64,000 nt of DNA, from positions 160,001 through 224,000 of the forward strand of contig BK006943.2 in assembly GCA_000146045.2 (NCBI GenBank). The letters run 5' to 3'. This document shows positions 1 through 44,806 of this stretch, piece after piece; within the stretch, counting starts at the first letter, position 1; every line of letters starts with the position of its first letter. This DNA is from TPA_inf: Saccharomyces (taxonomy: Eukaryota). The notes under the pieces were generated by a model that was given only the letters and a program-made list of their open reading frames with translations, did no database searches and had not been told where the DNA came from. The translations under genes were made by a program, and so were the position numbers.

Positions 1-618
1 TCATGCTTGATGCTCGGCTCCCACCGGAAAAACTAACTTGCGGGCGGGAAATTGATCCCTGAAGTCATGCCCCTCACCTTCATTCGTGGATCTTATCTCC
101 AGAGCAACCAAATGTGGAAATGGCATGACACCCCCCCACACACGTTCCGCCCACTTTTTTTCAAATGTGTGACACACCCATACCCCATAATGTTGCACGT
201 GACAGGTTTGTATCACGTGCTTCTTAGGGTTTTGTTTTAGGTCTGAGACATTTTAGGGTTTTTTTTCATCAAGTCTAGATCGTTTGTAACGAACGATTGC
301 TCCTTTTTTCTTTTTTTTTTGCTTTTTTTTTATACTCACCGTTTACTGTCATTATGTCTCTCGAGAAACTGGGCGTGTGTGCTAACCAAGACTGGATCAC
401 CTTTACATAGCACTTATTGCATTTCTTGGTGTTTCGTACCCTACAATTGACAAAAGTAATTTTGTCGTTCATTTCTTCATCGATTCTTTCCTCTTTCAAC
501 AACTTCCTTATTTTATCTTGGGATCGTAACTTCACTTAATTAATCACGATTCCCATATTCGTTAACACCTCTTAAGGTTTGCTGTAAATATATTTATGTT
601 ATAAAAAAAGAAGATATT

Positions 619-8700: not shown

Positions 8701-11700
8701 GAGCCAAATCTTGAGGTGGAACGATTAATGTTGCATCACCCGAGTGGACACCTGCATTTTCAACATGCTCAGAGACAACATGCATAACCAATTCACCATT
8801 TCTTGCAACTGCATCCATTTCAATCTCCTTTGCGTTTTCAATATATTTAGTGATAACAACAGGATAATCACGTGAAACTTCGACGGCTTGGTTTAAGTAG
8901 GATTCCAAATCGTTTTTAGAATAAACAGTATTCATGGCGGCACCGGATAACACATAAGATGGACGTACCAAAACTGGATAACCCACCTTTTCGGCAAAAG
9001 ATTCAGCTTCGTCCATGGATGTCAATTCTTTCCAAGCTGGTTGGTCAACACCAATTTGATCCAACATACGAGAGAACTTGTAACGGTTTTCAGCAGAATC
9101 AATCATGTCAGGGGATGTACCAAGAATCTTTACATTTTCACGATGTAAAGTCATGGCGATGTTGTTGGAAGTTTGACCACCCATTGATACGACAACACCG
9201 CTTGAGTTTTCAATCTCGTAAATATCCAAAACTCTTTCAAGGTTGATGGTTTCAAAGTATAGTCTATCAGCCTCATCATAATCTGTGGAAACAGTTTCTG
9301 GATTATAGTTGACCATGATAGTTTTGATATTGTTGGCACGTAATGTTCTAACTGCAGTAACAGCACACCAATCAAATTCGACAGAAGAACCGATACGGTA
9401 AACACCAGAACCCAAGACCATAACACCGTGGTCATCAAAGGATAAATCGTGTGAGTCAGCATTGTATGTCATGTATAAATAGTTCGTGTAAGCGGGGAAT
9501 TCAGCGGCAACTGTATCAATTTGTTTGACAAATGGTGTAATTCCATATTCTTTTCTTAATCTACGGATGGCAACTTCGTTGGAATCCAAAAATCTTGCAA
9601 TCTGTCTGTCATCAAAACCTAACTGCTTAGCCTGTCTTAAAACTAAGGAAGGTAATTCCTCTTTAGTACCAAATGAACTAATTTTCTCAGCAAATTGGAC
9701 CAAATCGTGCAGTTTGTTTAAAAACCACTTATCAATTCTAGTCATTTCCCAGACTTTATCAACAGAATATCCCTTCTTAGCAAAAGCATTTGCAATGGCG
9801 AAGACACGCATATCCGTAGGGTTGTTCAACTCGTAATCAATGTCGATATCTAGATCTGTCTCATTGAATCCGAGGTTAGCATATTCTGTGGATCTGATAG
9901 CTTTTTGAATAGCTTCTTCGAAGGTTCTACCGATGCTCATAACTTCACCAACAGATTTCATTGATGAAGATAATTCGGTAGAAACTCTGGTGAACTTCTT
10001 CAAATCCCATCTTGGCATTTTGACAACACAGTAGTCTAGAGAAGGTTCAAAACAAGCACATGTGGATTTTGTGACGGAATTCTTAACTTCATTTAATGGG
10101 ATATTCAAACCTAACTTAGCCGCAGTGTAGGCCAATGGGTAACCAGTAGCCTTAGAAGCTAAAGCAGAGGAACGTGACAAACGCGCATTAACTTCAATGA
10201 TGCAATAATCCTTAGAAACGGGATTTAAAGCATATTGGATATTACATTCACCAACAACACCTAAGTGTCTAATAACATTAACAGCAGTAGTTCTTAACAT
10301 ATTGTAATCTTCATCAGATAAAGTTTGAGATGGGGCTACAACGATGGAATCACCGGTGTGAATACCTAGTGGATCAAAATTTTCCATATTACAAACAGTA
10401 ATACAGTTGTCAAAAGCATCACGAACAACTTCATATTCGACTTCTTTCCAACCTTTCATAGATTTCTCGACTAAAACTTGAGGTGAGGATGAAAATGCAA
10501 CATTACATAGATCAACCAATTCTTTTTCATTATTAGCGAAACCGGAACCTAAACCTCCCAATGCATATGCAGCACGTACAATAACTGGGAAACCGATCTC
10601 CTTGACAGCGGCCAATGCCTCGTCCACTGAATTAGCAGCTTGAGATTTCGCACATTTTTCATTAATTTCGTCAATGGCATTACTGAAGAGTTCACGGTCT
10701 TCCGTGGTAATAATAGTATCGATTGGAGTACCCAATACTTTAACTCCTAACGCCTCAAATTCATCTTTCATGGCTATACCAACAGATAAAGCAGTTTGTC
10801 CACCAAATGTCACATAAATGGCGTCCGGCCTTTCATGTAAAATAACTTTTCTCACGAACTCTGCAGTAACAGGAACAAAATAAACCTTATCAGCCAACCC
10901 TTTCGAAGTTTGGATGGTAGCAATGTTTGGATTAATTAAAATTGTATAGATACCTTCTTCTTTCAAAGCTTTGATGGCTTGAGAACCAGAGTAGTCAAAT
11001 TCACCAGCTTGACCGATGGACAAACCACCAGAACCGAGAACTAGAACCTTCTTCGCTTCGATTCTAGGGTGTGCCTTAACGTTATCCTCTAATAGGCCAC
11101 CTGGGAAAGCGATTGGTTTCAACACTTGTGTATACTTGAATTCTTTAACTGCTTGGATAAAAACGTCAAACAAGAATTCTGTATCTCTTGGGCCAGGTGT
11201 GGATTCTGGATGGAATTGGACGGAAAAATAAGGTAATTCAGAATGATAGATACCTTCGTTAGAGTCATCATTCGCGTTAACAAACAATGGCTTCCATCCG
11301 GAAGTTAGAGTGTCAACATCCACAGCGAACCCATGGTTTTGAGATGTTATGTAACAACGACCACTTATAGTTGATGTACAAGGTATGTTATGACCACGGT
11401 TACCAAATTTTAGTTTTAGGGTGGATGCACCGGCAGCTCTTGCTATCAATTGATGACCGAGACAAATACCGAATACTGGCGTCTTTTTAGCCTCCAGGAC
11501 ATTTGACAATCTTTGAGATAGATCATCTAGAACAGATGGATCACCTGGACCATTTGAAATAAACAGACCATCATAATCTTCTTTAGTGAAATCGTAGTTC
11601 CATGGAACAACTTTCAATTCTACACCCCTTTTGATAAAACAACGAATTTGATTGTATTTCATACCCACGTCAATGGCTAGAATCCTTAAAACTTTACCAT

Positions 11701-12367
11701 CGGGTCCGGTTTGCAATTCGATGTGCTTATTGTCTGCTGGAGGAACGTACAATTTAGGTTCATTGATGGAGACCTTAGAAACTAGGTTTTGAACATTTGG
11801 ATCCACCCATTCAGGAACATCAAACGCACTTCTCCAAGAGGAAGATCTGGAGATGGTTCTGTCAGAGCCGCTTTTTTCCAAAGACAACCTACCCAACATT
11901 GAACCTGCATCTCTCAAATGCTTGGTCAATGATCTTGTATCAACACCATAAACAGCTGGGATCCCTTCATTTTGTAACCATTTACCTAAGGAAGATTTAG
12001 CAAGATAATGAGAGTACTCGTCGGTATAGTGAGAAATAACTAAACCGGCAATATGGATTCTATTACTTTCAAAATATCTTGGCAATTCTTCGACCAATTC
12101 ATCTCTCAAGTGCATATCTGGGACACCATAATTGCCTACCAATGGGTAAGTGATGACTAAGATCTGGCCTTCATAAGATGGATCGGTCACAGATTCAGGA
12201 TAACCAACCATACCAGTTTGGAAAACTAATTCACCAGCGACGGATTTCTCAGCACCAAATGAATAACCTTGTAAGACCGTGCCGTCCTTAAGTTCCAACG
12301 TAACCAGACGGTCACCCGTAGATTCCATTGGAGGGGTGATTGGAGCAGTGGGAGCAATAGTGGCCAT
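5723..12367 (-). CDS. URA2: Multifunctional pyrimidine biosynthesis protein: glutamine amidotransferase, carbamoyl-phosphate synthetase, inactive dihydroorotase-like domain, aspartate transcarbamylase (2214 aa)
   Basis: N-terminus [20 protein letters not shown]. GATase class I region with catalytic Cys (GICLGHQL). Two ATP-grasp CPSase halves. C-terminal ATCase with STRTR and HPLP motifs. The track ORF starts at an upstream TTG (12418). The true ATG at 12365-12367 gives 2214 aa. Confidence 0.95.
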
Positions 12368-36286: not shown

Positions 36287-37126
36287 ATGTCAATTGTTTC
36301 ACTGTTAGGCATCAAAGTCTTAAACAACCCGGCAAAGTTCACTGATCCATATGAGTTTGAAATCACTTTTGAATGCTTAGAATCTTTAAAACATGACTTA
36401 GAGTGGAAACTAACCTATGTTGGGTCCTCTCGTTCTCTAGACCATGACCAGGAATTGGATTCCATTCTGGTAGGCCCCGTTCCCGTAGGTGTTAATAAAT
36501 TTGTGTTTTCTGCTGACCCTCCCTCCGCCGAGCTGATTCCTGCGAGTGAATTGGTTAGTGTGACTGTTATTCTATTAAGTTGTTCTTATGACGGGAGAGA
36601 GTTTGTTAGGGTCGGTTACTACGTGAATAATGAGTACGATGAAGAAGAGTTAAGAGAAAATCCGCCAGCAAAGGTACAAGTAGATCATATTGTAAGAAAT
36701 ATACTGGCTGAAAAGCCAAGGGTAACAAGGTTTAACATTGTTTGGGATAATGAAAATGAAGGGGATTTATACCCACCTGAACAGCCCGGCGTAGATGATG
36801 AAGAGGAGGAGGACGATGAAGAAGAAGATGACGATGAAGATGATGAAGACGACGAAGATGACGATCAAGAAGATGGAGAGGGAGAGGCGGAAGAAGCGGC
36901 AGAGGAGGAAGAAGAGGAGGAAGAGAAGACTGAAGACAACGAAACGAATCTTGAAGAAGAGGAGGAAGACATAGAAAATAGTGACGGCGATGAGGAAGAA
37001 GGAGAAGAAGAGGTGGGGTCTGTAGACAAGAATGAAGATGGTAATGATAAGAAGAGGAGGAAAATAGAAGGGGGGTCCACGGATATTGAATCCACTCCAA
37101 AGGATGCGGCACGTTCAACGAATTAA
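36287..37126 (+). CDS. ASF1: Histone H3/H4 chaperone anti-silencing function 1 (279 aa)
   Basis: Conserved N-terminal core [32 protein letters not shown] plus a long C-terminal poly-Asp/Glu tail. 279 aa. Confidence 0.95.
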
Positions 37127-37312
37127 GAATTTATGGGTTATAAGATTAATGGTACCTGCAAGAGAGGTACACTTTATAAAATGTATAAATAAAAAAATAA
37201 CAGACATAAGATAAAGTCGGGTTAGGGCAACAGCTACGTAAAAAATAAAAGGCAGTAATATTTTCCATTTAAGTTGATTTTCTTATTATTGTCGTTGAGA
37301 ACAAAAAGAAAT

Positions 37313-37385
37313 TGGACGAGTCCGGAATCGAACCGGAGACCTCTCCCATGCTAAGGGAGCGCGCTACCGACTACGCCACACGCCC
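37313..37385 (-). tRNA. tA(AGC): tRNA-Ala (anticodon AGC)
   Basis: The reverse complement reads GGGCGTGTGGCGTAGTCGGTAGCGCGCTCCCTTAGCATGGGAGAGGTCTCCGGTTCGATTCCGGACTCGTCCA, identical to yeast tRNA-Ala. A-box TGGCGTAGTCGG, B-box GGTTCGATTCC, G3:U70 pair. Confidence 0.95.
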
Positions 37386-37400
37386 TAATATTATTGATAT

Positions 37401-37494
37401 TGTTGTTTATCAAAGTGAGATACGTCAGTATGACAATACGTCATCCTAAAAGTTCATAAAACACATATGAAACAACTTCATAACAGAACGAACA
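37401..37494 (+). repeat. Sigma (Ty3 LTR) 5' fragment of about 94 bp, 16 bp upstream of the tRNA-Ala 5' end
   Basis: tgttgtttatcaaagtgagatacgtcagtatgacaatacgtcatcc...acacatatgaaacaac matches the sigma 5' end (TGTTGTATCTCAAAATGAGATATGTCAGTATGACAATACGTCACC...). The 16-bp spacing from a Pol III gene is the classic Ty3 integration position. Confidence 0.8.
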
Positions 37495-37544
37495 TGTTGG
37501 AATAAAAATCCACTATCGTCTATCAACTAATAGTTATATTATCA
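37495..37544 (+). repeat. Delta (Ty1/Ty2 LTR) 5' fragment, truncated by the Ty4 insertion
   Basis: tgttggaataaaaatccactatcgtctatcaactaatagttatattatca matches delta positions about 1-60 (TGTTGGAATAGAAATCAACTATCATCTACTAACTAGTA...TATTATCA). Confidence 0.75.
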
Positions 37545-37915
37545 TGTTGGAACGAGAGTAATTAATAGTGACATGAGTTGCTATGGTAACAATCTAATGC
37601 TTACATCGTATATTAATGTACAACTCGTATACGTTTAAGTGTGATTGCGCCTATTGCAGAAGGAATGTTAAACGAGAAGCTCAGACAATACTGAAGCTGT
37701 GTTAAAGACCTATTAGTTGAACATGTTATGGTAGGTACATATATGAGGAATATGAGTCGTCACATCAATGTATAGTAACTACCGGAATCACTATTATATT
37801 GGTCATAATTAATATGACCAATCGGCGTGTGTTTTATATACCTCTCTTATTTAGTATAAGAAGATCAGTACTCACTTCTTCATTAATACTAATTTTTAAC
37901 CTCTAATTATCAACA
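37545..37915 (+). repeat. Ty4 5' LTR (tau, 371 bp)
   Basis: TG...CA termini. Essentially identical to the 3' LTR at 43398-43768 over the parts compared. Confidence 0.9.
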
Positions 37916-39157
37916 TGGCGACCCCAGTGAGGGGTGAAACAAGAAATGTTATTGACGACAACATTTCTGCGCGGATTCAATCGAAAGTCAAAACAAATGA
38001 TACTGTCAGACAGACGCCATCATCATTAAGAAAAGTTTCTATTAAAGATGAACAGGTGAGACAATATCAAAGAAACTTAAATAGGTTTAAAACCATACTA
38101 AATGGTTTAAAGGCAGAAGAGGAAAAACTTTCTGAGGCTGATGATATTCAGATGCTAGCTGAAAAATTATTAAAACTCGGAGAAACCATTGACAAGGTTG
38201 AGAATAGGATTGTGGATCTAGTTGAAAAGATACAATTATTGGAAACAAACGAGAACAATAATATATTACATGAACATATAGATGCTACAGGGACTTACTA
38301 TTTATTCGATACGTTAACTTCAACCAACAAAAGATTCTACCCTAAGGATTGTGTTTTTGATTATAGGACTAATAATGTCGAGAACATTCCTATTCTCTTA
38401 AACAATTTTAAAAAATTCATCAAGAAATATCAATTTGATGATGTCTTTGAAAATGATATCATAGAAATCGATCCTCGTGAAAATGAAATCTTGTGCAAGA
38501 TAATCAAAGAAGGACTCGGTGAAAGTTTAGATATCATGAACACAAATACAACTGACATTTTTAGGATAATCGATGGTTTAAAAAAACAAATATAGAAGTT
38601 TGCATGGTAGAGATGTCAGAATTAGAGCCTGGGAAAAGGTTTTGGTTGATACAACATGTAGAAATTCCGCATTGTTAATGAATAAACTTCAAAAGTTGGT
38701 ACTAATGGAAAAATGGATTTTTTCTAAATGCTGCCAAGATTGTCCTAATCTAAAGGATTACCTACAAGAAGCTATCATGGGAACCTTACATGAATCCTTA
38801 AGAAATTCTGTGAAACAACGTTTGTACAACATTCCACATGACGTAGGAATTGATCACGAAGAATTTCTAATCAATACTGTTATTGAAACAGTAATTGATT
38901 TGAGCCCAATTGCAGACGATCAAATAGAAAATAGCTGCATGTATTGCAAATCTGTTTTCCATTGCTCAATTAACTGCAAAAAGAAACCAAATAGGGAACT
39001 TAGGCCTGACTCGACCAATTTCTCAAAAACCTATTATCTACAAGGTGCACAGAGACAACAACCACTTAAGTCCAGTGCAAAACGAACAAAAGTCTTGGAA
39101 CAAGACACAAAAAAGGTCGAACAAAGTGTACAACAGCAAAAAACTGGTAATTATTGA
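37915..39157 (+). CDS. Ty4 Gag (TYA), apparently interrupted by a frameshift at 38580-38600 in this copy
   Basis: Frame-1 ORF 37915-38595 (226 aa) is followed by frame-2 ORF 38600-39157, which carries the nucleocapsid zinc knuckle CMYCKSVFHCSINC. The switch happens exactly at an A7 run (38580-38586): frame 2 has TAA at 38579-81 and frame 1 has TAG at 38593-95. Deleting one A yields a continuous 414-codon Gag. Confidence 0.7.
38999..39005 (+). other. Ty +1 programmed ribosomal frameshift heptamer CUU-AGG-C
   Basis: The exact heptamer used by Ty1, Ty2 and Ty4. CTT is a frame-2 (Gag) codon and GGC starts the frame-0 (Pol) ORF. Confidence 0.85.
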
Positions 39158-42100
39158 TACCGGTTCCGGAGTAAACATTACCAATGACAAAACCTTACTG
39201 CATAATTACGAAGACAGTAATCGCAGTACACGATTTTTTGGTATTGGGAAAAACAGTTCAGTGTCTGTTAAAGGGTATGGCTATATAAAAATCAAGAATG
39301 GTCACAACAATACTGACAATAAGTGTCTATTAACTTACTATGTACCGGAAGAAGAATCCACTATAATCAGCTGTTATGACTTAGCCAAGAAAACCAAAAT
39401 GGTTTTAAGTCGAAAATATACCAGATTGGGAAACAAAATCATAAAAATTAAAACCAAGATAGTTAATGGTGTCATTCACGTAAAAATGAACGAGTTAATT
39501 GAACGTCCTTCCGATGATTCAAAAATAAATGCAATAAAACCTACTTCTTCTCCTGGATTTAAACTAAATAAAAGGTCTATTACCTTGGAAGATGCTCATA
39601 AAAGAATGGGCCATACAGGAATTCAACAAATTGAAAATTCCATAAAACATAATCATTATGAAGAATCCCTTGACTTAATCAAAGAACCAAATGAATTTTG
39701 GTGTCAAACCTGTAAAATCTCTAAAGCCACGAAAAGAAATCATTATACCGGGTCTATGAATAATCATAGTACTGATCATGAACCAGGCTCATCATGGTGC
39801 ATGGATATATTTGGCCCTGTATCAAGTTCAAACGCGGACACTAAAAGGTACATGCTTATTATGGTGGATAACAACACGAGATATTGCATGACCTCCACAC
39901 ACTTCAATAAGAATGCTGAAACTATTTTAGCTCAAGTTAGAAAGAATATTCAGTACGTGGAAACACAATTTGACAGGAAAGTCAGAGAAATTAATTCAGA
40001 CAGAGGTACTGAATTCACAAATGATCAGATAGAAGAATATTTTATTTCAAAAGGAATACATCACATACTTACTTCTACACAAGATCATGCTGCTAACGGA
40101 AGAGCAGAAAGATACATAAGAACAATAATAACTGATGCAACAACACTCCTAAGACAAAGTAACTTAAGAGTAAAATTTTGGGAATACGCAGTAACTTCTG
40201 CTACCAATATAAGAAATTACCTGGAACACAAAAGTACAGGTAAACTACCATTGAAGGCAATCTCACGTCAACCTGTGACAGTGAGATTAATGTCATTCTT
40301 ACCATTTGGCGAAAAAGGAATAATTTGGAATCATAATCACAAAAAATTGAAACCATCTGGACTTCCTTCTATAATTCTATGCAAAGATCCAAATAGTTAT
40401 GGATACAAATTCTTTATACCATCCAAAAATAAAATTGTCACATCTGATAATTATACAATTCCCAACTATACAATGGACGGTAGAGTAAGAAATACTCAGA
40501 ATATTAACAAGAGTCATCAATTCAGTTCAGATAATGATGATGAAGAAGATCAAATCGAAACGGTCACAAACTTATGTGAAGCTTTGGAAAACTACGAAGA
40601 TGATAATAAACCAATTACTCGCCTGGAAGATTTGTTCACAGAGGAAGAGTTATCTCAAATAGACTCAAACGCAAAATACCCATCTCCTAGTAATAACCTA
40701 GAAGGGGACTTGGATTACGTATTTTCTGATGTTGAGGAATCTGGAGATTATGACGTTGAATCTGAACTTTCAACGACAAATAATTCAATCTCAACTGATA
40801 AAAACAAAATTTTGTCAAACAAGGATTTTAATTCAGAACTTGCATCGACTGAAATATCCATCAGTGGAATCGATAAGAAAGGATTAATAAATACAAGTCA
40901 TATTGATGAAGATAAGTATGATGAAAAAGTCCACAGAATTCCATCGATTATACAAGAGAAACTGGTAGGAAGTAAAAATACTATTAAAATCAATGACGAA
41001 AACAAAATCTCCGACAGAATTCGTAGTAAAAACATTGGGAGTATTTTAAACACTGGACTCAGTAGATGTGTAGATATCACCGATGAATCTATTACTAACA
41101 AAGATGAGTCAATGCACAACGCAAAACCCGAACTAATTCAGGAGCAGTTAAAAAAAACAAATCATGAAACTTCGTTTCCTAAAGAAGGGAGCATTGGAAC
41201 AAATGTAAAATTCCGAAATACAAACAATGAGATTTCTTTAAAAACAGGCGATACGAGTTTACCAATAAAAACTTTAGAAAGCATTAACAATCACCATAGT
41301 AATGATTATTCCACAAACAAAGTTGAAAAGTTTGAGAAGGAAAATCATCATCCGCCCCCGATTGAGGACATTGTGGATATGAGTGATCAAACTGATATGG
41401 AATCAAACTGTCAGGATGGTAATAACTTAAAAGAATTAAAAGTCACCGATAAAAATGTACCAACTGACAATGGAACAAATGTGTCACCAAGGTTGGAACA
41501 AAATATTGAAGCATCTGGATCACCAGTACAAACAGTTAATAAAAGTGCCTTCTTAAACAAAGAATTCAGTTCTTTGAACATGAAAAGAAAACGGAAAAGA
41601 CACGATAAAAACAATAGTCTAACAAGCTATGAATTAGAAAGAGATAAGAAGCGTTCAAAAAAGAATCGAGTGAAATTAATTCCAGATAATATGGAAACAG
41701 TTTCAGCACCAAAAATTCGAGCCATATATTATAATGAAGCTATTTCAAAAAATCCTGACCTCAAAGAAAAACATGAATACAAACAGGCATATCATAAAGA
41801 ATTACAGAATTTAAAAGATATGAAGGTATTTGATGTCGATGTGAAGTACAGTAGATCAGAAATCCCTGATAATTTAATAGTACCCACCAACACGATATTC
41901 ACAAAGAAAAGAAATGGGATTTATAAGGCTAGGATAGTCTGCAGAGGTGATACTCAGTCACCAGACACTTACAGTGTAATAACTACAGAATCTTTAAATC
42001 ACAATCATATTAAGATATTCTTAATGATTGCAAACAACAGAAATATGTTTATGAAGACCCTGGATATCAATCATGCATTCCTATATGCTAAATTGGAAGA

Positions 42101-43325
42101 AGAAATATACATCCCACATCCGCATGATAGGAGATGTGTAGTCAAGCTAAATAAGGCGTTATATGGTCTAAAACAGAGTCCTAAAGAATGGAATGATCAT
42201 CTAAGACAATACTTGAATGGAATTGGACTGAAAGATAACTCTTATACTCCGGGATTATACCAAACCGAGGATAAAAATCTAATGATTGCAGTCTATGTTG
42301 ATGACTGCGTAATTGCGGCAAGCAATGAACAGAGATTGGATGAATTCATAAACAAATTGAAAAGTAATTTTGAACTGAAAATTACAGGAACATTAATAGA
42401 CGATGTACTCGATACAGATATATTAGGAATGGATCTAGTATACAACAAAAGACTTGGTACTATCGATTTAACATTAAAATCATTCATAAATAGAATGGAT
42501 AAAAAATACAACGAGGAATTGAAAAAGATTAGAAAAAGTTCAATTCCGCATATGTCAACTTATAAAATAGATCCTAAGAAAGACGTACTGCAAATGTCAG
42601 AAGAAGAGTTTAGACAAGGTGTTCTAAAGCTACAACAATTACTAGGTGAACTAAACTATGTCAGACACAAATGCAGATACGACATTGAATTTGCTGTTAA
42701 GAAAGTGGCTAGACTAGTAAATTACCCACATGAAAGAGTCTTTTATATGATTTACAAAATAATCCAGTACTTGGTTCGGTATAAAGATATTGGAATACAC
42801 TATGACCGAGACTGTAATAAAGACAAAAAGGTTATTGCTATAACTGATGCATCAGTTGGATCAGAATATGATGCTCAATCAAGGATTGGAGTTATATTAT
42901 GGTACGGTATGAATATTTTTAATGTTTATTCTAACAAGAGCACAAACAGATGTGTATCATCAACAGAAGCAGAGCTTCATGCCATTTATGAAGGCTATGC
43001 AGACTCAGAAACGTTGAAGGTAACATTAAAGGAGCTAGGAGAAGGAGACAATAATGACATTGTCATGATCACTGACTCAAAGCCAGCCATTCAAGGATTA
43101 AATCGCAGCTATCAACAACCAAAAGAGAAATTCACTTGGATAAAAACTGAAATAATAAAAGAAAAAATTAAAGAGAAGAGTATAAAACTGTTAAAAATTA
43201 CCGGCAAAGGTAATATTGCTGATTTACTAACAAAACCAGTATCAGCATCTGATTTTAAAAGATTTATACAAGTATTAAAAAATAAAATAACATCACAGGA
43301 TATTTTGGCCTCAACAGACTATTGA
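39003..43325 (+). CDS. Ty4 Pol (TYB): protease, integrase, reverse transcriptase, RNase H. Expressed as a Gag-Pol fusion by +1 frameshifting.
   Basis: +1 frame open from the CTT-AGG-C heptamer (38999-39005). Aspartic protease IDTGSG. Integrase HHCC (HKRMGH...CQTCKISK) and D,D35E. RT motif YVDDCVIAA. RNase H TDAS. The track ORF 39045-43325 (1426 aa) starts at an internal GTG. Confidence 0.9.
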   Translation, partial: GLTRPISQKPIIYKVHRDNNHLSPVQNEQKSWNKTQKRSNKVYNSKKLVIIDTGSGVNITNDKTLLHNYEDSNRSTRFFGIGKNSSVSVKGYGYIKIKNGHNNTDNKCLLTYYVPEEESTIISCYDLAKKTKMVLSRKYTRLGNKIIKIKTKIVNGVIHVKMNELIERPSDDSKINAIKPTSSPGFKLNKRSITLEDAHKRMGHTGIQQIENSIKHNHYEESLDLIKEPNEFWCQTCKISKATKRNHYTGSMNNHSTDHEPGSSWCMDIFGPVSSSNADTKRYMLIMVDNNTRYCMTSTHFNKNAETILAQVRKNIQYVETQFDRKVREINSDRGTEFTNDQIEEYFISKGIHHILTSTQDHAANGRAERYIRTIITDATTLLRQSNLRVKFWEYAVTSATNIRNYLEHKSTGKLPLKAISRQPVTVRLMSFLPFGEKGIIWNHNHKKLKPSGLPSIILCKDPNSYGYKFFIPSKNKIVTSDNYTIPNYTMDGRVRNTQNINKSHQFSSDNDDEEDQIETVTNLCEALENYEDDNKPITRLEDLFTEEELSQIDSNAKYPSPSNNLEGDLDYVFSDVEESGDYDVESELSTTNNSISTDKNKILSNKDFNSELASTEISISGIDKKGLINTSHIDEDKYDEKVHRIPSIIQEKLVGSKNTIKINDENKISDRIRSKNIGSILNTGLSRCVDITDESITNKDESMHNAKPELIQEQLKKTNHETSFPKEGSIGTNVKFRNTNNEISLKTGDTSLPIKTLESINNHHSNDYSTNKVEKFEKENHHPPPIEDIVDMSDQTDMESNCQDGNNLKELKVTDKNVPTDNGTNVSPRLEQNIEASGSPVQTVNKSAFLNKEFSSLNMKRKRKRHDKNNSLTSYELERDKKRSKKNRVKLIPDNMETVSAPKIRAIYYNEAISKNPDLKEKHEYKQAYHKELQNLKDMKVFDVDVKYSRSEIPDNLIVPTNTIFTKKRNGIYKARIVCRGDTQSPDTYSVITTESLNHNHIKIFLMIANNRNMFMKTLDINHAFLYAKLEEEIYIPHPHDRRCVVKLNKALYGLKQSPKEWNDHLRQYLNGIGLKDNSYTPGLYQTEDKNLMIAVYVDDCVIAASNEQRLDEFINKLKSNFELKITGTLIDDVLDTDILGMDLVYNKRLGTIDLTLKSFINRMDKKYNEELKKIRKSSIPHMSTYKIDPKKDVLQMSEEEFRQGVLKLQQLLGELNYVRHKCRYDIEFAVKKVARLVNYPHERVFYMIYKIIQYLVRYKDIGIHYDRDCNKDKKVIAITDASVGSEYDAQSRIGVILWYGMNIFNVYSNKSTNRCVSSTEAELHAIYEGYADSETLKVTLKELGEGDNNDIVMITDSKPAIQGLNRSYQQPKEKFTWIKTEIIKEKIKEKSIKLLKITGKGNIADLLTKPVSASDFKRFIQVLKNKITSQDILASTDY

Positions 43326-43397
43326 TAATTAATTAATGAAGTTCTAAACACACAATGAATATCTGTTGAAGTACAATAATATATCTTTAAGGGAGCA

Positions 43398-43768
43398 TGT
43401 TGGAACGAGAGTAATTAATAGTGACATGAGTTGCTATGGTAACAATCTAATGCTTACATCGTATATTAATGTACAACTCGTATACGTTTAAGTGTGATTG
43501 CGCCTATTGCAGAAGGAATGTTAAACGAGAAGCTCAGACAATACTGAAGCTGTGTTAAAGACCTATTAGTTGAACATGTTATGGTAGGTACATATATGAG
43601 GAATATGAGTCGTCACATCAATGTATAGTAACTACCGGAATCACTATTATATTGGTCATAATTAATATGACCAATCGGCGTGTGTTTTATATACCTCTCT
43701 TATTTAGTATAAGAAGATCAGTACTCACTTCTTCATTAATACTAATTTTTAACCTCTAATTATCAACA
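43398..43768 (+). repeat. Ty4 3' LTR (tau, 371 bp)
   Basis: Direct repeat of 37545-37915. Preceded by a polypurine tract (aagggagca). Confidence 0.9.
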
Positions 43769-43782
43769 TATCAATATATTAT

Positions 43783-44114
43783 TGAAGATTGGGTGAATTT
43801 TGAGATAATTGTTGGGATTCCATTTTTAATAAGGCAATAATATTAGGTATGTAGATATACTAGAAGTTCTCCTCCAGGATTTAGGAATCCATAAAAGGAA
43901 ATCTGCAATTCTACACAATTCTATAAATATTATTATCATCATTTTATATGTTAATATTCATTGATCCTATTACATTATCAATCCTTGCGTTTCAGCTTCC
44001 ACTAATTTAGATGACTATTTCTCATCATTTGCGTCATCTTCTAACACCGTATATGATAATATACTAGTAACGTAAATACTAGTTAGTAGATGATAGTTGA
44101 TTTTTATTCCAACA
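43783..44114 (-). mobile_element. Full-length solo delta LTR (Ty1/Ty2 type, 332 bp), inverted relative to Ty4
   Basis: The reverse complement begins TGTTGGAATAAAAATCAACTATCATCTACTAACTAGTATTTACGTTACTAGTATATTATCATATACGGTGTTAG and ends ...CAACAATTATCTCAAAATTCACCCAATCTTCA. Flanked by a 5-bp duplication ATTAT (43778-43782 and 44115-44119). Confidence 0.9.
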
Positions 44115-44392
44115 ATTATCATATACGGTGTTAAGATGATGACATAAGTTATGAGAAGCTGTCATCGAAGTTAGAGGAAGCTGAAGTGCAAGGATTGATA
44201 ATGTAATAGGATAATGAAACATATAAAACGGAATGAGGAATAATCGTAATATTAGTATGTAGAAATATAGATTCCATTTTGAGGATTCCTATATCCTCGA
44301 GGAGAACTTCTAGTATATTCTGTATACCTAATATTATACCCTCTATCAACAACAGGATTCCAACAATTATTTCAAAATCCACCCATATCTCA
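44115..44392 (+). repeat. Diverged delta LTR 3' portion, 5'-truncated; probably the remainder of the delta whose 5' end is at 37495-37544
   Basis: Starts attatcatatacggtgttaagatgatgac (delta about position 47 onward) and ends caacaattatttcaaaatccacccatatctca, a delta 3' terminus. About 80-85% identical to the inverted solo delta. Confidence 0.7.
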
Positions 44393-44734
44393 GATTTCAC
44401 ATCAGTATTGATTAAAATATTAATTGCTACCAGTTCTAATAAATCTAATGTTTACATCATATAGTAATATATCTTTTGAGAAATGTGACTGGCGTTATAC
44501 AGAAACCGAATTACACGTTTTAAATACTAATTATTAAAATTTATCCTGATAAGTTGATCTTTATTTCCGTACAGCACAACCGATAGAGGAGATGTTTAAA
44601 GTGTTTAAGCTCACTTTATAGGGTGAAACACATTTTGACGACCGTAAAAGGTCATTTGATTTGGTATTGAGGTCGAGAAAATATTTTCAAATAGTGAAGG
44701 ATACATTAAACACGCTCACAAAACAACATAAAAA

Positions 44735-44806
44735 TCCGTGATAGTTTAATGGTCAGAATGGGCGCTTGTCGCGTGCCAGATCGGGGTTCAATTCCCCGTC
44801 GCGGAG
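44735..44806 (+). tRNA. tD(GUC): tRNA-Asp (anticodon GUC)
   Basis: TCCGTGATAGTTTAATGGTCAGAATGGGCGCTTGTCGCGTGCCAGATCGGGGTTCAATTCCCCGTCGCGGAG is identical to yeast tRNA-Asp. A-box and B-box present. The Ty material lies on its 5' side. Confidence 0.95.

Follow-up and report, generated by a model that had tools for sequence, protein, structure and literature searches.

Repeated Ty insertion and probable LTR-LTR recombination between two divergent tRNA genes of Saccharomyces cerevisiae

The interval between the divergent tRNA-Ala(AGC) and tRNA-Asp(GUC) genes of Saccharomyces cerevisiae chromosome X raises the question of how many Ty insertions have built it, in which order they came, and whether the delta that hosts the later elements was itself a single insertion. 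The window, i.e. the whole 64,000-nucleotide stretch that was analysed, corresponds to chrX:160001-224000, and window positions equal the chrX entries of Carr et al. 2012 minus 160000. The locus was identified from its neighbouring genes (ASF1, MDV1, Cpn60_TCP1 and GATA) by ORF length and Pfam family, with ASF1 and MDV1 bracketing the inter-tRNA interval. ARAGORN and Rfam recovered both tRNA genes on the strands and at the coordinates given in a preliminary description of this DNA (Table 1). An assembly artefact was rejected because two independent assemblies (L011 and L013) show a structure identical to that of the window.

According to the preliminary description, Ty3, Ty1/2 and Ty4 integrated successively between the tRNA genes, an older delta harbouring both the Ty4 and an inverted delta; this is upheld both by a natural empty allele (see below) and by the published re-annotation. 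Every copia-type insertion is located 70-630 bp upstream of one tRNA gene or of both, and the interval very likely represents a shared upstream region of two divergent Pol III genes that was repeatedly hit by Pol III-targeting LTR retrotransposons and trimmed by LTR-LTR recombination. The statement that all of it is Ty-derived proved too strong, the Ty-derived portion being about 95% of 7349 bp: the 15 bp adjoining tRNA-Ala and most of 44393-44734 showed no match to the Ty sequences compared. A search of the 64-kb window found no Ty fragments outside 37401-44392, including the missing sigma positions 95-341.

Table 1. Features of the inter-tRNA interval (window positions)
Feature	Position	Strand	Remarks
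tRNA-Ala(AGC) gene	37313-37385	-	ARAGORN; Rfam RF00005, 59.5 bits; 5' end toward the Ty cluster
GATAT, left sigma TSD copy	37396-37400		Right copy lost in the window haplotype; basis: strains L007, L004
Sigma fragment YJLWsigma1, LTR positions 1-94	37401-37494 (94 bp)	+	92.6% identity to the same positions of the full L007 sigma
GAACA, 5-bp target at which the Ty1 of delta A entered sigma	37490-37494		Left copy only in the window; basis: L004
Ty1-type delta, piece 1/3	37495-37544	+	Delta positions 1-50; last 5 bases TATCA = Ty4 target
Ty4 YJLWTy4-1	37545-43768	+	6224 bp; Carr File S2 chrX_i10 TY4
Ty4 left LTR (tau)	37545-37915	+	371 bp
Ty4 TYA	starts at 37915	+	Frameshifted, extra A in run 38574-38580
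Ty4 PBS	starts at 37916	+	
Ty4 slippery heptamer CTTAGGC	38999	+	In TYA frame; TYB frame open there
Ty4 TYB	ends at 43325	+	
Ty4 PPT	43389-43397	+	
Ty4 right LTR	43398-43768	+	371 bp
Ty1-type delta, middle piece (ATATATTAT), between Ty4 and inverted delta	43769-43782	+	TATCA (duplicate of delta 46-50), then ATAT + ATTAT (delta 51-59)
Inverted Ty2-type solo LTR YJLCdelta3	43783-44114	-	332 bp; Carr File S2 chrX_s241 TY2
Ty1-type delta, piece 3/3	44115-44392	+	ATTAT duplicate + delta positions 60-332
342-bp segment	44393-44734		Present in all strains examined; no Ty family assignable; contains tau-like 30-mer 44442-44471
tRNA-Asp(GUC) gene	44735-44806	+	ARAGORN; Rfam RF00005, 56.3 bits

At the tRNA-Ala end, the sigma fragment lies as previously described, with 15 bases between it and the tRNA gene and its first base at -16. 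In strains L007 and L004 a sigma of the full 341 bp, bounded by GATAT at either end, occupies the same place as the window fragment. This sigma shows the features of its family, namely an LTR of about 340 bp that starts with TGTTGTAT..., a start within the 16-19 bp range ahead of the 5' end of the mature tRNA and a 5-bp TSD. In the window it is reduced to 94 bp and a single TSD copy. File S2 of Carr et al. 2012 (PMC3511429) lists it as chrX_s239 TY3, present in 16/16 strains. A separate sigma is found at -17 of tRNA-Asp in L005.

The Ty4 proved to be full-length and flanked by a perfect TATCA duplication, as had been proposed, with copies at 37540-37544 and 43769-43773; the empty alleles of L010 and L004 have a single TATCA at this site. 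Its LTRs are identical at 371/371 positions, with TGTTGG...TCAACA ends, and the interior begins with TGGCGACCCCAGTGAGGGG directly after the 5' LTR and closes with AAGGGAGCA directly before the 3' LTR. The PBS is presumably the complement of the tRNA-Asn(GUU) 3' end. Pfam detects Pol_BBD (36-116), rve (245-346), SH3_retrovirus (417-471) and RVT_2 (945-1156) domains in the TYB frame, and the Pol domain order is protease - integrase - reverse transcriptase, that of the copia elements. Compared to the Ty4 of L005, one additional A in the run 38574-38580 disrupts TYA; deleting this base restores a TYA of 414 aa. The element thus lacks the pair of intact, +1-overlapping TYA and TYB frames expected of its family. 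Judged from these features it is a genuine family member (Ty1/copia-type, Pseudoviridae) but a defective copy. When the truncated 226-aa TYA product was used as a strain marker it was found in three contigs only, and as all of these have the S288C structure no intermediate haplotype was gained.

The second nested element is likewise a full-length inverted solo delta with a perfect ATTAT duplication (copies at 43778-43782 and 44115-44119), in agreement with the preliminary description. It has the length (about 332-338 bp), the TGTTGG...TCA ends and the 5-bp TSD expected of a delta, is assigned to the Ty2 class by Carr et al. 2012, and is 98.4% identical to the LTRs of a full-length element in L003. 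No full-length Ty2 was seen at the ATTAT site in the strains sampled, and the LTR probably derives from the collapse of such an element. At another site, with the TSD ATATT, a full-length Ty2-type element is present in L003 and a solo LTR in L014 and L016.

The older delta had been described as two halves, 37495-37544 (50 bp) and 44115-44392 (278 bp), split by two later insertions. This is correct for the halves; the 9-bp middle piece, 43774-43782, had gone uncounted. Without the duplicate TSD copies the pieces are 37495-37544, 43774-43782 and 44120-44392, which add up to 50+9+273 = 332 bp. We performed the in-silico excision that had been proposed as a check, removing both insertions with one TSD copy each, and the product aligns as one delta that is identical at 332/332 positions to the uninterrupted allele of L010 (GCA_030035915.1), far beyond chance. 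As the excised delta equals a natural empty allele, both TATCA and ATTAT are real TSDs inside the older delta rather than LTR sequence of the inserted elements.

The stretch atattatca atat attatca between the two insertions had further been taken as a sign of an additional rearrangement, whereby a single old delta, hit twice, also underwent a local duplication. The sequence between Ty4 and the inverted delta does resemble a tandem copy of ATATTATCA, and the delta is cut into pieces; yet the uninterrupted L010 and L004 alleles already contain ...TATATTATCAATATATTATCATATACGG.... Moreover, the 332-bp excision product aligns with a 332-bp Ty2 delta without a gap across this segment, as it does with other delta LTRs, and both LTRs of the full-length Ty1 of L016 contain the atattatca stretch. 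The stretch is therefore native delta sequence that requires no further rearrangement. As a single delta insertion would also leave the mismatched outer flanks and the mosaic structure of the delta (see below) unexplained, we give the rearrangement reading almost no credence.

With its 332 bp after excision and its placement in the Ty1 class by Carr et al. 2012, the split delta shows the features of a delta except that a TSD is lacking: its 5' and 3' flanks in the window, GAACA and GATTT, do not match. It is 93% identical to the LTR of the full-length Ty1-type element in L016, and 83% identical to the inverted delta. We rejected the latter value as a sign of age because the difference, given the 93% identity to LTRs of a full-length element, is mainly that between Ty1 and Ty2.

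The mismatched flanks led us to prefer an origin from two deltas over a decayed TSD. The allele of L004 is a two-delta intermediate, which reads sigma positions 1-94, delta A, GAACA and sigma positions 95-341 ... delta B, with the same right flank as the window. A three-way comparison with the deltas of L004 shows that, as far as 44309, the window delta has the A base wherever A and B can be told apart; the only exceptions are 44258-44259, where the L004 A copy alone differs from all other copies compared. From 44343 on, the window delta has the B base at 9/9 diagnostic sites. The split delta thus appears to be the crossover product of delta A and delta B, with the crossover placed within 44310-44342, and the earlier view of it as a single insertion is contradicted by both the two-delta allele and the mosaic. 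Such a recombinant origin would account for the absence of a TSD and for the sigma that is cut at position 94. From the window alone, with sigma 1-94 abutting a delta of unlike flanks, one might equally suppose that a lone delta entered sigma and that its 3' TSD and the sigma remainder were lost through a later, unrelated deletion to its right. However, the right end of the delta (44343-44392) has all nine delta-B-specific bases, followed by the exact delta-B flank of every other strain, and a random deletion would not stop at the homologous position in a second LTR and restore a 332-bp element; we consider this alternative very improbable.

Two observations count against the A-by-B crossover in its simplest form. 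Delta B, with the flanks GGATC and GATTT, has no recognisable TSD of its own, and the delta that L007 has at the B site resembles A from end to end, although the sigma there is uninterrupted. The L007 delta indicates that gene conversion among the copies has blurred the simple picture.

Taken together, these data are consistent with the following history. First, a Ty3 would have inserted at the transcription start of tRNA-Ala, with GATAT as its TSD, and been reduced to a solo sigma; delta B, a Ty1 LTR located some 500 bp upstream of this tRNA gene, was already there or arrived later. Delta A would then be the remnant of a second Ty1 that entered sigma at its position 94 and duplicated GAACA; this order, with sigma and delta B preceding delta A, is probable. 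The next step would be recombination between delta A and delta B, in which part of each delta was lost together with sigma 95-341, a spacer and an older, inverted piece of sigma, so that sigma 1-94 now abuts a single hybrid delta of 332 bp. Ty4 would subsequently have integrated at delta positions 46-50 (TATCA), and a Ty2 9 bp further, at delta 55-59 (ATTAT), in the opposite orientation, before collapsing to its solo LTR; at some later point Ty4 would have gained the 1-bp insertion that breaks TYA. The count of at least four integrations by three Ty families thus holds as a lower bound, as the window records at least five or six.

That Ty4 preceded Ty2 is suggested by published strain calls (Carr et al. 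2012, PMC3511429), in which sigma was scored in 16/16, the delta in 24/25, Ty4 in 5/8 and the Ty2 delta in 2/13 strains, with K11 and YJM789 scored Ty4-present and Ty2-delta-absent. These are low-coverage SGRP calls, which may confuse the S288C Ty4 site with a tau 4 bp away, as is seen in L009.

Across roughly 20 haplotypes we counted about 12 independent Ty insertions at the locus. Four independent integrations fall in a 17-bp stretch of the solo delta, delta 43-59 (window 37537-37544 + 43774-43782), namely a Ty2 (ATATT), the S288C Ty4 (TATCA), a second Ty4/tau (AATAT) and the S288C Ty2 (ATTAT). If 11 events were spread uniformly across some 1.2 kb, such a cluster would have P ~0.0015. We tentatively raise the idea that delta 43-59 is a position-specific micro-hotspot common to Ty4 and Ty1/Ty2, though we lean somewhat against it. 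Ty1 has a periodic insertion pattern set by nucleosome-surface and Pol III cues, and if the micro-hotspot is real the Ty4 integrase would read the same cues. To our knowledge these have been mapped genome-wide for Ty1 and hardly at all for Ty4. The design of the synthetic chromosome X removes the entire interval.

The 342 bp upstream of tRNA-Asp contain a stretch that had been put forward as a relic of an older Ty4 LTR. The match itself stands, with 26/30 positions of 44442-44471 identical to tau 47-76 in the same orientation, while the relic reading remains unproven, as the family profile finds it without significance. Were most of the segment the decayed remains of an older tau, the inter-tRNA interval would be of Ty origin throughout. 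In favor of this, the strict local score of 40 exceeds the maxima of 300 shuffles (33) and of 327 real window tiles (26), blastn against the active tau gives E = 1.3e-4, and a lenient collinear alignment of tau 13-130 with window 44404-44517 scores 28 against a null maximum of 24. This alignment, however, covers no more than roughly one third of the 342-bp segment. The 11 old tau copies of Carr File S6 were made into nhmmer profiles, once by themselves and once together with the active tau, and these find the 30-mer spot without significance (E = 0.12 on the 342-bp target alone, -2 bits); 0/11 of the older copies score above their own shuffle range at this segment, and the RepeatMasker/REannotate re-annotation has nothing between 204392 and tRNA-Asp. 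On balance, we place the tau origin only slightly below an even chance.

The locus is already known from the reference annotation and from the Ty re-annotation of Carr, Bensasson & Bergman 2012 (PMC3511429, Files S2/S3), which records the nesting at S288C chrX 197.3-204.8 kb (from the tA(AGC)J side onward YJLWsigma1, the split Ty1 delta, YJLWTy4-1 and YJLCdelta3), while targeting, nesting and solo-LTR formation are textbook processes. Sequence and element boundaries are the same as ours (offset 160000), and there, as here, Ty4 and the Ty2 delta are nested ('REannotate_1-nested') in a Ty1 solo LTR (chrX_s240 TY1) joined from 197493-197542 and 204115-204392. Unlike our reconstruction, that table enters the split delta as a single solo LTR, does not record the A-by-B recombination or list the 9-bp middle piece, and leaves the 342 bp beside tRNA-Asp unannotated. 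Added here are a natural empty allele that confirms the nested reconstruction to the base, a history corrected in that the split delta is a probable recombinant of two insertions, and the extent of variability at the site. The locus carries little weight as a discovery and serves as a worked example for dating nested insertions by population data.

In Pol III-directed Ty integration, the Ty3 integrase is tethered by TFIIIB to the tRNA transcription start, and insertions of Ty1, Ty2 and Ty4 fall in the roughly 1 kb that precedes Pol III genes (PMC5911963). The same mechanism probably operated here, where sigma lies at -16 of tRNA-Ala and the copia-type insertions lie upstream of the tRNAs. There is no difference in kind; the two tRNA genes of this locus share one upstream region, so that every insertion is within range of both. 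Solo-LTR formation and ectopic LTR-LTR recombination are events of the type reportedly described by Farabaugh and Fink in 1980. Comparable to these are the full-length element of L003 against the solo LTR of L014 and L016 at one site, and the hybrid delta of the window, apparently formed from neighbouring direct LTRs. In contrast to the usual collapse of one element, the A-by-B event would have joined LTRs of separate insertions about 0.4-1.1 kb apart, and the deleted DNA would thus be host sequence and older Ty remnants, not the interior of a Ty.

The open reading frames around the cluster, which by length and Pfam content correspond in order to ASF1 (279 aa), MDV1 (714 aa), a Cpn60/TCP1 protein (550 aa), a GATA factor and a 1769-aa HEAT-repeat protein, and the published Ty entries for S. 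cerevisiae chrX at 197399-197492, 197493-197542, 197543-203768, 203793-204114 and 204115-204392 (Carr, Bensasson and Bergman 2012, PMC3511429), which equal window coordinates plus 160000 save for 2 bp inside the Ty4, identify the window as S288C chrX:160001-224000 and the locus as that holding YJLWsigma1, YJLWTy4-1 and YJLCdelta3. The 2-bp offset is due to genome versions. The Ty4 interior measures 5484 bp (197914-203397) in the sacCer2 GFF of Carr et al. and 5482 bp in the window (37916-43397). The cluster is real, was correctly described in its essentials in the preliminary description, whose coordinates for the tRNA genes, the sigma at -16, the Ty4 and the inverted delta all held on re-check, and is already known, its nesting and solo-LTR formation having been recorded previously (Carr et al., PMC3511429). 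The inter-tRNA interval (7349 bp), taken to be entirely Ty-derived, consists of five Ty elements over about 6990 bp (95%), leaving 15 bp beside tRNA-Ala and 342 bp beside tRNA-Asp; and the older delta is indeed split, but into three pieces rather than two, the additional 9-bp one having the Ty4 on its left and the inverted delta on its right. ARAGORN and Rfam detected no other RNA family between the two tRNA genes, and no Ty sequence was found elsewhere in the 64-kb window.

Elements of the cluster and further insertions in other haplotypes of the interval (L-numbers denote other public haplotypes; SGRP, scored strains carrying the element)
Element	Position	Size or strand	Ends or TSD	Remarks
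tRNA-Ala(AGC)	37313-37385	minus		ARAGORN, Rfam
tRNA-Asp(GUC)	44735-44806	plus		ARAGORN, Rfam
sigma fragment	37401-37494			begins at -16, 15 bases off tRNA-Ala; SGRP 16/16
split delta	37495-37544 + 43774-43782 + 44120-44392	332 bp		after excision of insertions; SGRP 24/25
Ty4	37545-43768	6224 bp	TATCA	SGRP 5/8 (K11, S288c, UWOPS83-787.3, W303, YJM789)
Ty4 LTRs	37545-37915 and 43398-43768	371 bp each		every base identical
inverted delta (Ty2)	43783-44114	332 bp	ATTAT	SGRP 2/13 (S288c and W303 only)
Ty2-type element	37537-37541		ATATT	L003 full-length, L014/L016 solo LTR
solo tau with delta inside	delta 50-54		AATAT	L009
delta	44170-44174		GTTAG	L001
delta	44216-44220		GAAAC	L006
full-length Ty1	44254-44258		AGTAT	L014/L016
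delta	44646-44650		AAAAG	L020
delta	44659-44663		ATTTG	L010
sigma with Ty4 inside	-17 of tRNA-Asp		CAAAA (sigma)	L005:12242-18966 (GCA_000975975.3)

For in-silico excision, each inserted element was removed with one TSD copy and the delta pieces were joined; over its full length the 332-bp product is 83% identical to the inverted delta, likewise 332 bp long, and the junction segment aligns gap-free. Ten other haplotypes were retrieved from public assemblies through an ASF1 protein look-up and annotated by BLAST against parts of the window. In one of them, L010 (GCA_030035915.1), both sites are free of the Ty4 and of the inverted delta, and the uninterrupted delta is identical to the product of excision over its whole length (332/332), confirming by the test proposed at the outset that the pieces form one element; L004 has the same junction sequence as this uninterrupted delta. 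These empty alleles show, as had been proposed, that TATCA and ATTAT are true target-site duplications, and that the Ty4 and the inverted delta entered by simple, independent events, with target pentamers (delta positions 46-50 and 55-59) 4 bp apart in the uninterrupted element. An extra rearrangement had been suspected from the stretch 'atattatca atat attatca'. However, this is ordinary delta sequence predating both insertions, being present in L010, in L004 and in both LTRs of a full-length Ty1-type element in L016, so that no such rearrangement is necessary.

The flanks of the split delta are mismatched (GAACA left, GATTT right) and the window sigma breaks off at position 94, features explained by the states seen in other strains. 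L007, L002, L008 and L005 carry a complete 341-bp sigma between two copies of GATAT; beyond it come a short spacer, an older sigma fragment in inverted orientation, a delta (delta B) and the right flank of the window. L004 has a complete delta of 332 bp (delta A), flanked by two copies of GAACA, inserted in its sigma behind position 94; beyond this delta lie the sigma remainder (with a solo tau, TSD CATAT), the inverted sigma fragment, delta B and the common right flank. The split delta agrees with A at all A/B diagnostic sites up to 44309, except 44258-44259, where delta A of L004 alone departs from every other copy compared; it also has the A-type 6-bp TAGAAA, absent from every B-site copy, and from 44343 up to its 3' end carries the B base at each of the nine diagnostic positions. 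The window haplotype therefore arose from an L004-like one via a crossover between the direct deltas A and B within 44310-44342, which deleted the sigma remainder and all else between them and left one fused delta. The fused state is common to L003, L010, L014 and L016.

The inverted sigma fragment (about 125 bp), which comes after the complete sigma and before delta B at L007:11457-11607 and at the equivalent place in L002, L004 and L005, belongs to a second sigma and is a further Ty3 event at tRNA-Ala that was lost from the S288C haplotype. L007 fits poorly with a simple A-by-B history: its B-site delta (11608-11933) differs from delta A of L004 (11209-11540) by one 6-bp indel and 2 bases, and yet its sigma is uninterrupted, and hence this haplotype never carried delta A. 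The 94-bp sigma fragment differs between the window and L003 at six sites. Both the L007 delta and these sigma differences are likely to stem from gene conversion among LTR copies, and in the former we suspect that recombination was also involved.

The LTRs of a full-length element in L003 match the inverted delta at 98.4% identity, and the LTR of another full-length element, in L016, matches the split delta at 93%. Identity between these two elements is 72.6% in the first 3.1 kb and reaches 90.6% in the last 2.2 kb, the known Ty1 versus Ty2 pattern. As the two deltas thus match different full-length elements, their divergence was rejected as an age measure, being mostly a family difference. 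Carr et al. (PMC3511429) assign the split delta to Ty1 and the inverted one to Ty2, which brings the families at the locus to four (Ty1, Ty2, Ty3 and Ty4).

A possible relic of an older Ty4 LTR had also been noted upstream of tRNA-Asp. The match itself stands: 44442-44471 shares 26 of its 30 bases with tau 47-76, read in the same direction (blastn E = 1.3e-4), its strict local score of 40 exceeds the maxima of 300 shuffles (33) and of 327 real 342-bp window tiles on both strands (26), and lenient alignment extends it collinearly across tau 13-130. In contrast, profile HMMs made from 11 older taus of Carr File S6 pick the same spot below significance, whether or not the active copy is included, and none of the old copies scores above its own shuffle range against the stretch beside tRNA-Asp. 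The RepeatMasker-based published annotation has no element here (Carr et al., PMC3511429). Whether the stretch is a real tau relic is, on this sequence evidence, about an even call.

The Ty4 is full-length and, given its identical LTRs, young, yet defective. The domains of its TYB frame follow the copia order (Pol_BBD, integrase core, SH3-like, RVT_2), a PBS-like TGGCGACCCCAGTGAGGGG lies directly 3' of the 5' LTR, and AAGGGAGCA directly 5' of the 3' LTR. The TYA frame contains a CTTAGGC heptamer at 38999, where the TYB frame is open. TYA is broken across two frames: the A run at 38574-38580 is seven bases long, against six in the Ty4 of L005, from which the window copy also departs by six substitutions, and removal of the extra A restores a 414-aa TYA. 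Just three public contigs encode the truncated 226-aa product, all of the S288C structure, so the frameshift seems confined to S288C-derived strains. In L005 itself, N runs mask the Ty4 LTR/sigma junctions, and the exact Ty4 insertion site is unreadable.

Presence/absence counts at the locus come from published SGRP strain calls. As K11 and YJM789 are scored with the Ty4 and without the Ty2 delta, these low-coverage calls suggest that the Ty4 arrived earlier and the Ty2 later, in the laboratory-strain lineage. Across about 20 haplotypes the interval has taken many further independent insertions. Of the 11 copia-type events counted, four, including the Ty4 and the Ty2 delta of the window, fall inside 17 bp of the delta (P ~0.0015 under uniform placement). 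L016 (901-1290) and L014 (GCA_949123975.1, GCA_030036495.1) also carry a Ty1-type 3' end, with the PPT GGGTGGTA and a 332-bp LTR, that stops 12 bp short of the ASF1 start codon (~window 36275); it lies about 1 kb off on the 3' side of tRNA-Ala, which is unusual for Ty1, and would replace the ASF1 promoter. In L012 (GCA_033956085.1, CP135956.1), 22 kb contain nine loxPsym sites (ATAACTTCGTATAATGTACATTATACGAAGTTAT). One of these stands in place of the segment from just after ASF1 to the tRNA-Asp end (window 37037-44806), so that the two tRNA genes and every Ty element are gone; the assembly resembles the synthetic chromosome X design.

Repeated Pol III-directed Ty integration upstream of both tRNA genes would have built the cluster. 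Ty3 is directed by TFIIIB to sites 1-4 bp from where tRNA transcription starts; insertions of Ty1, Ty2 and Ty4 fall in the ~1 kb upstream of Pol III genes, those of Ty1 at nucleosomal sites (PMC5911963). The pattern at this locus is that predicted by these established Pol III targeting rules for Ty elements (PMC5911963).
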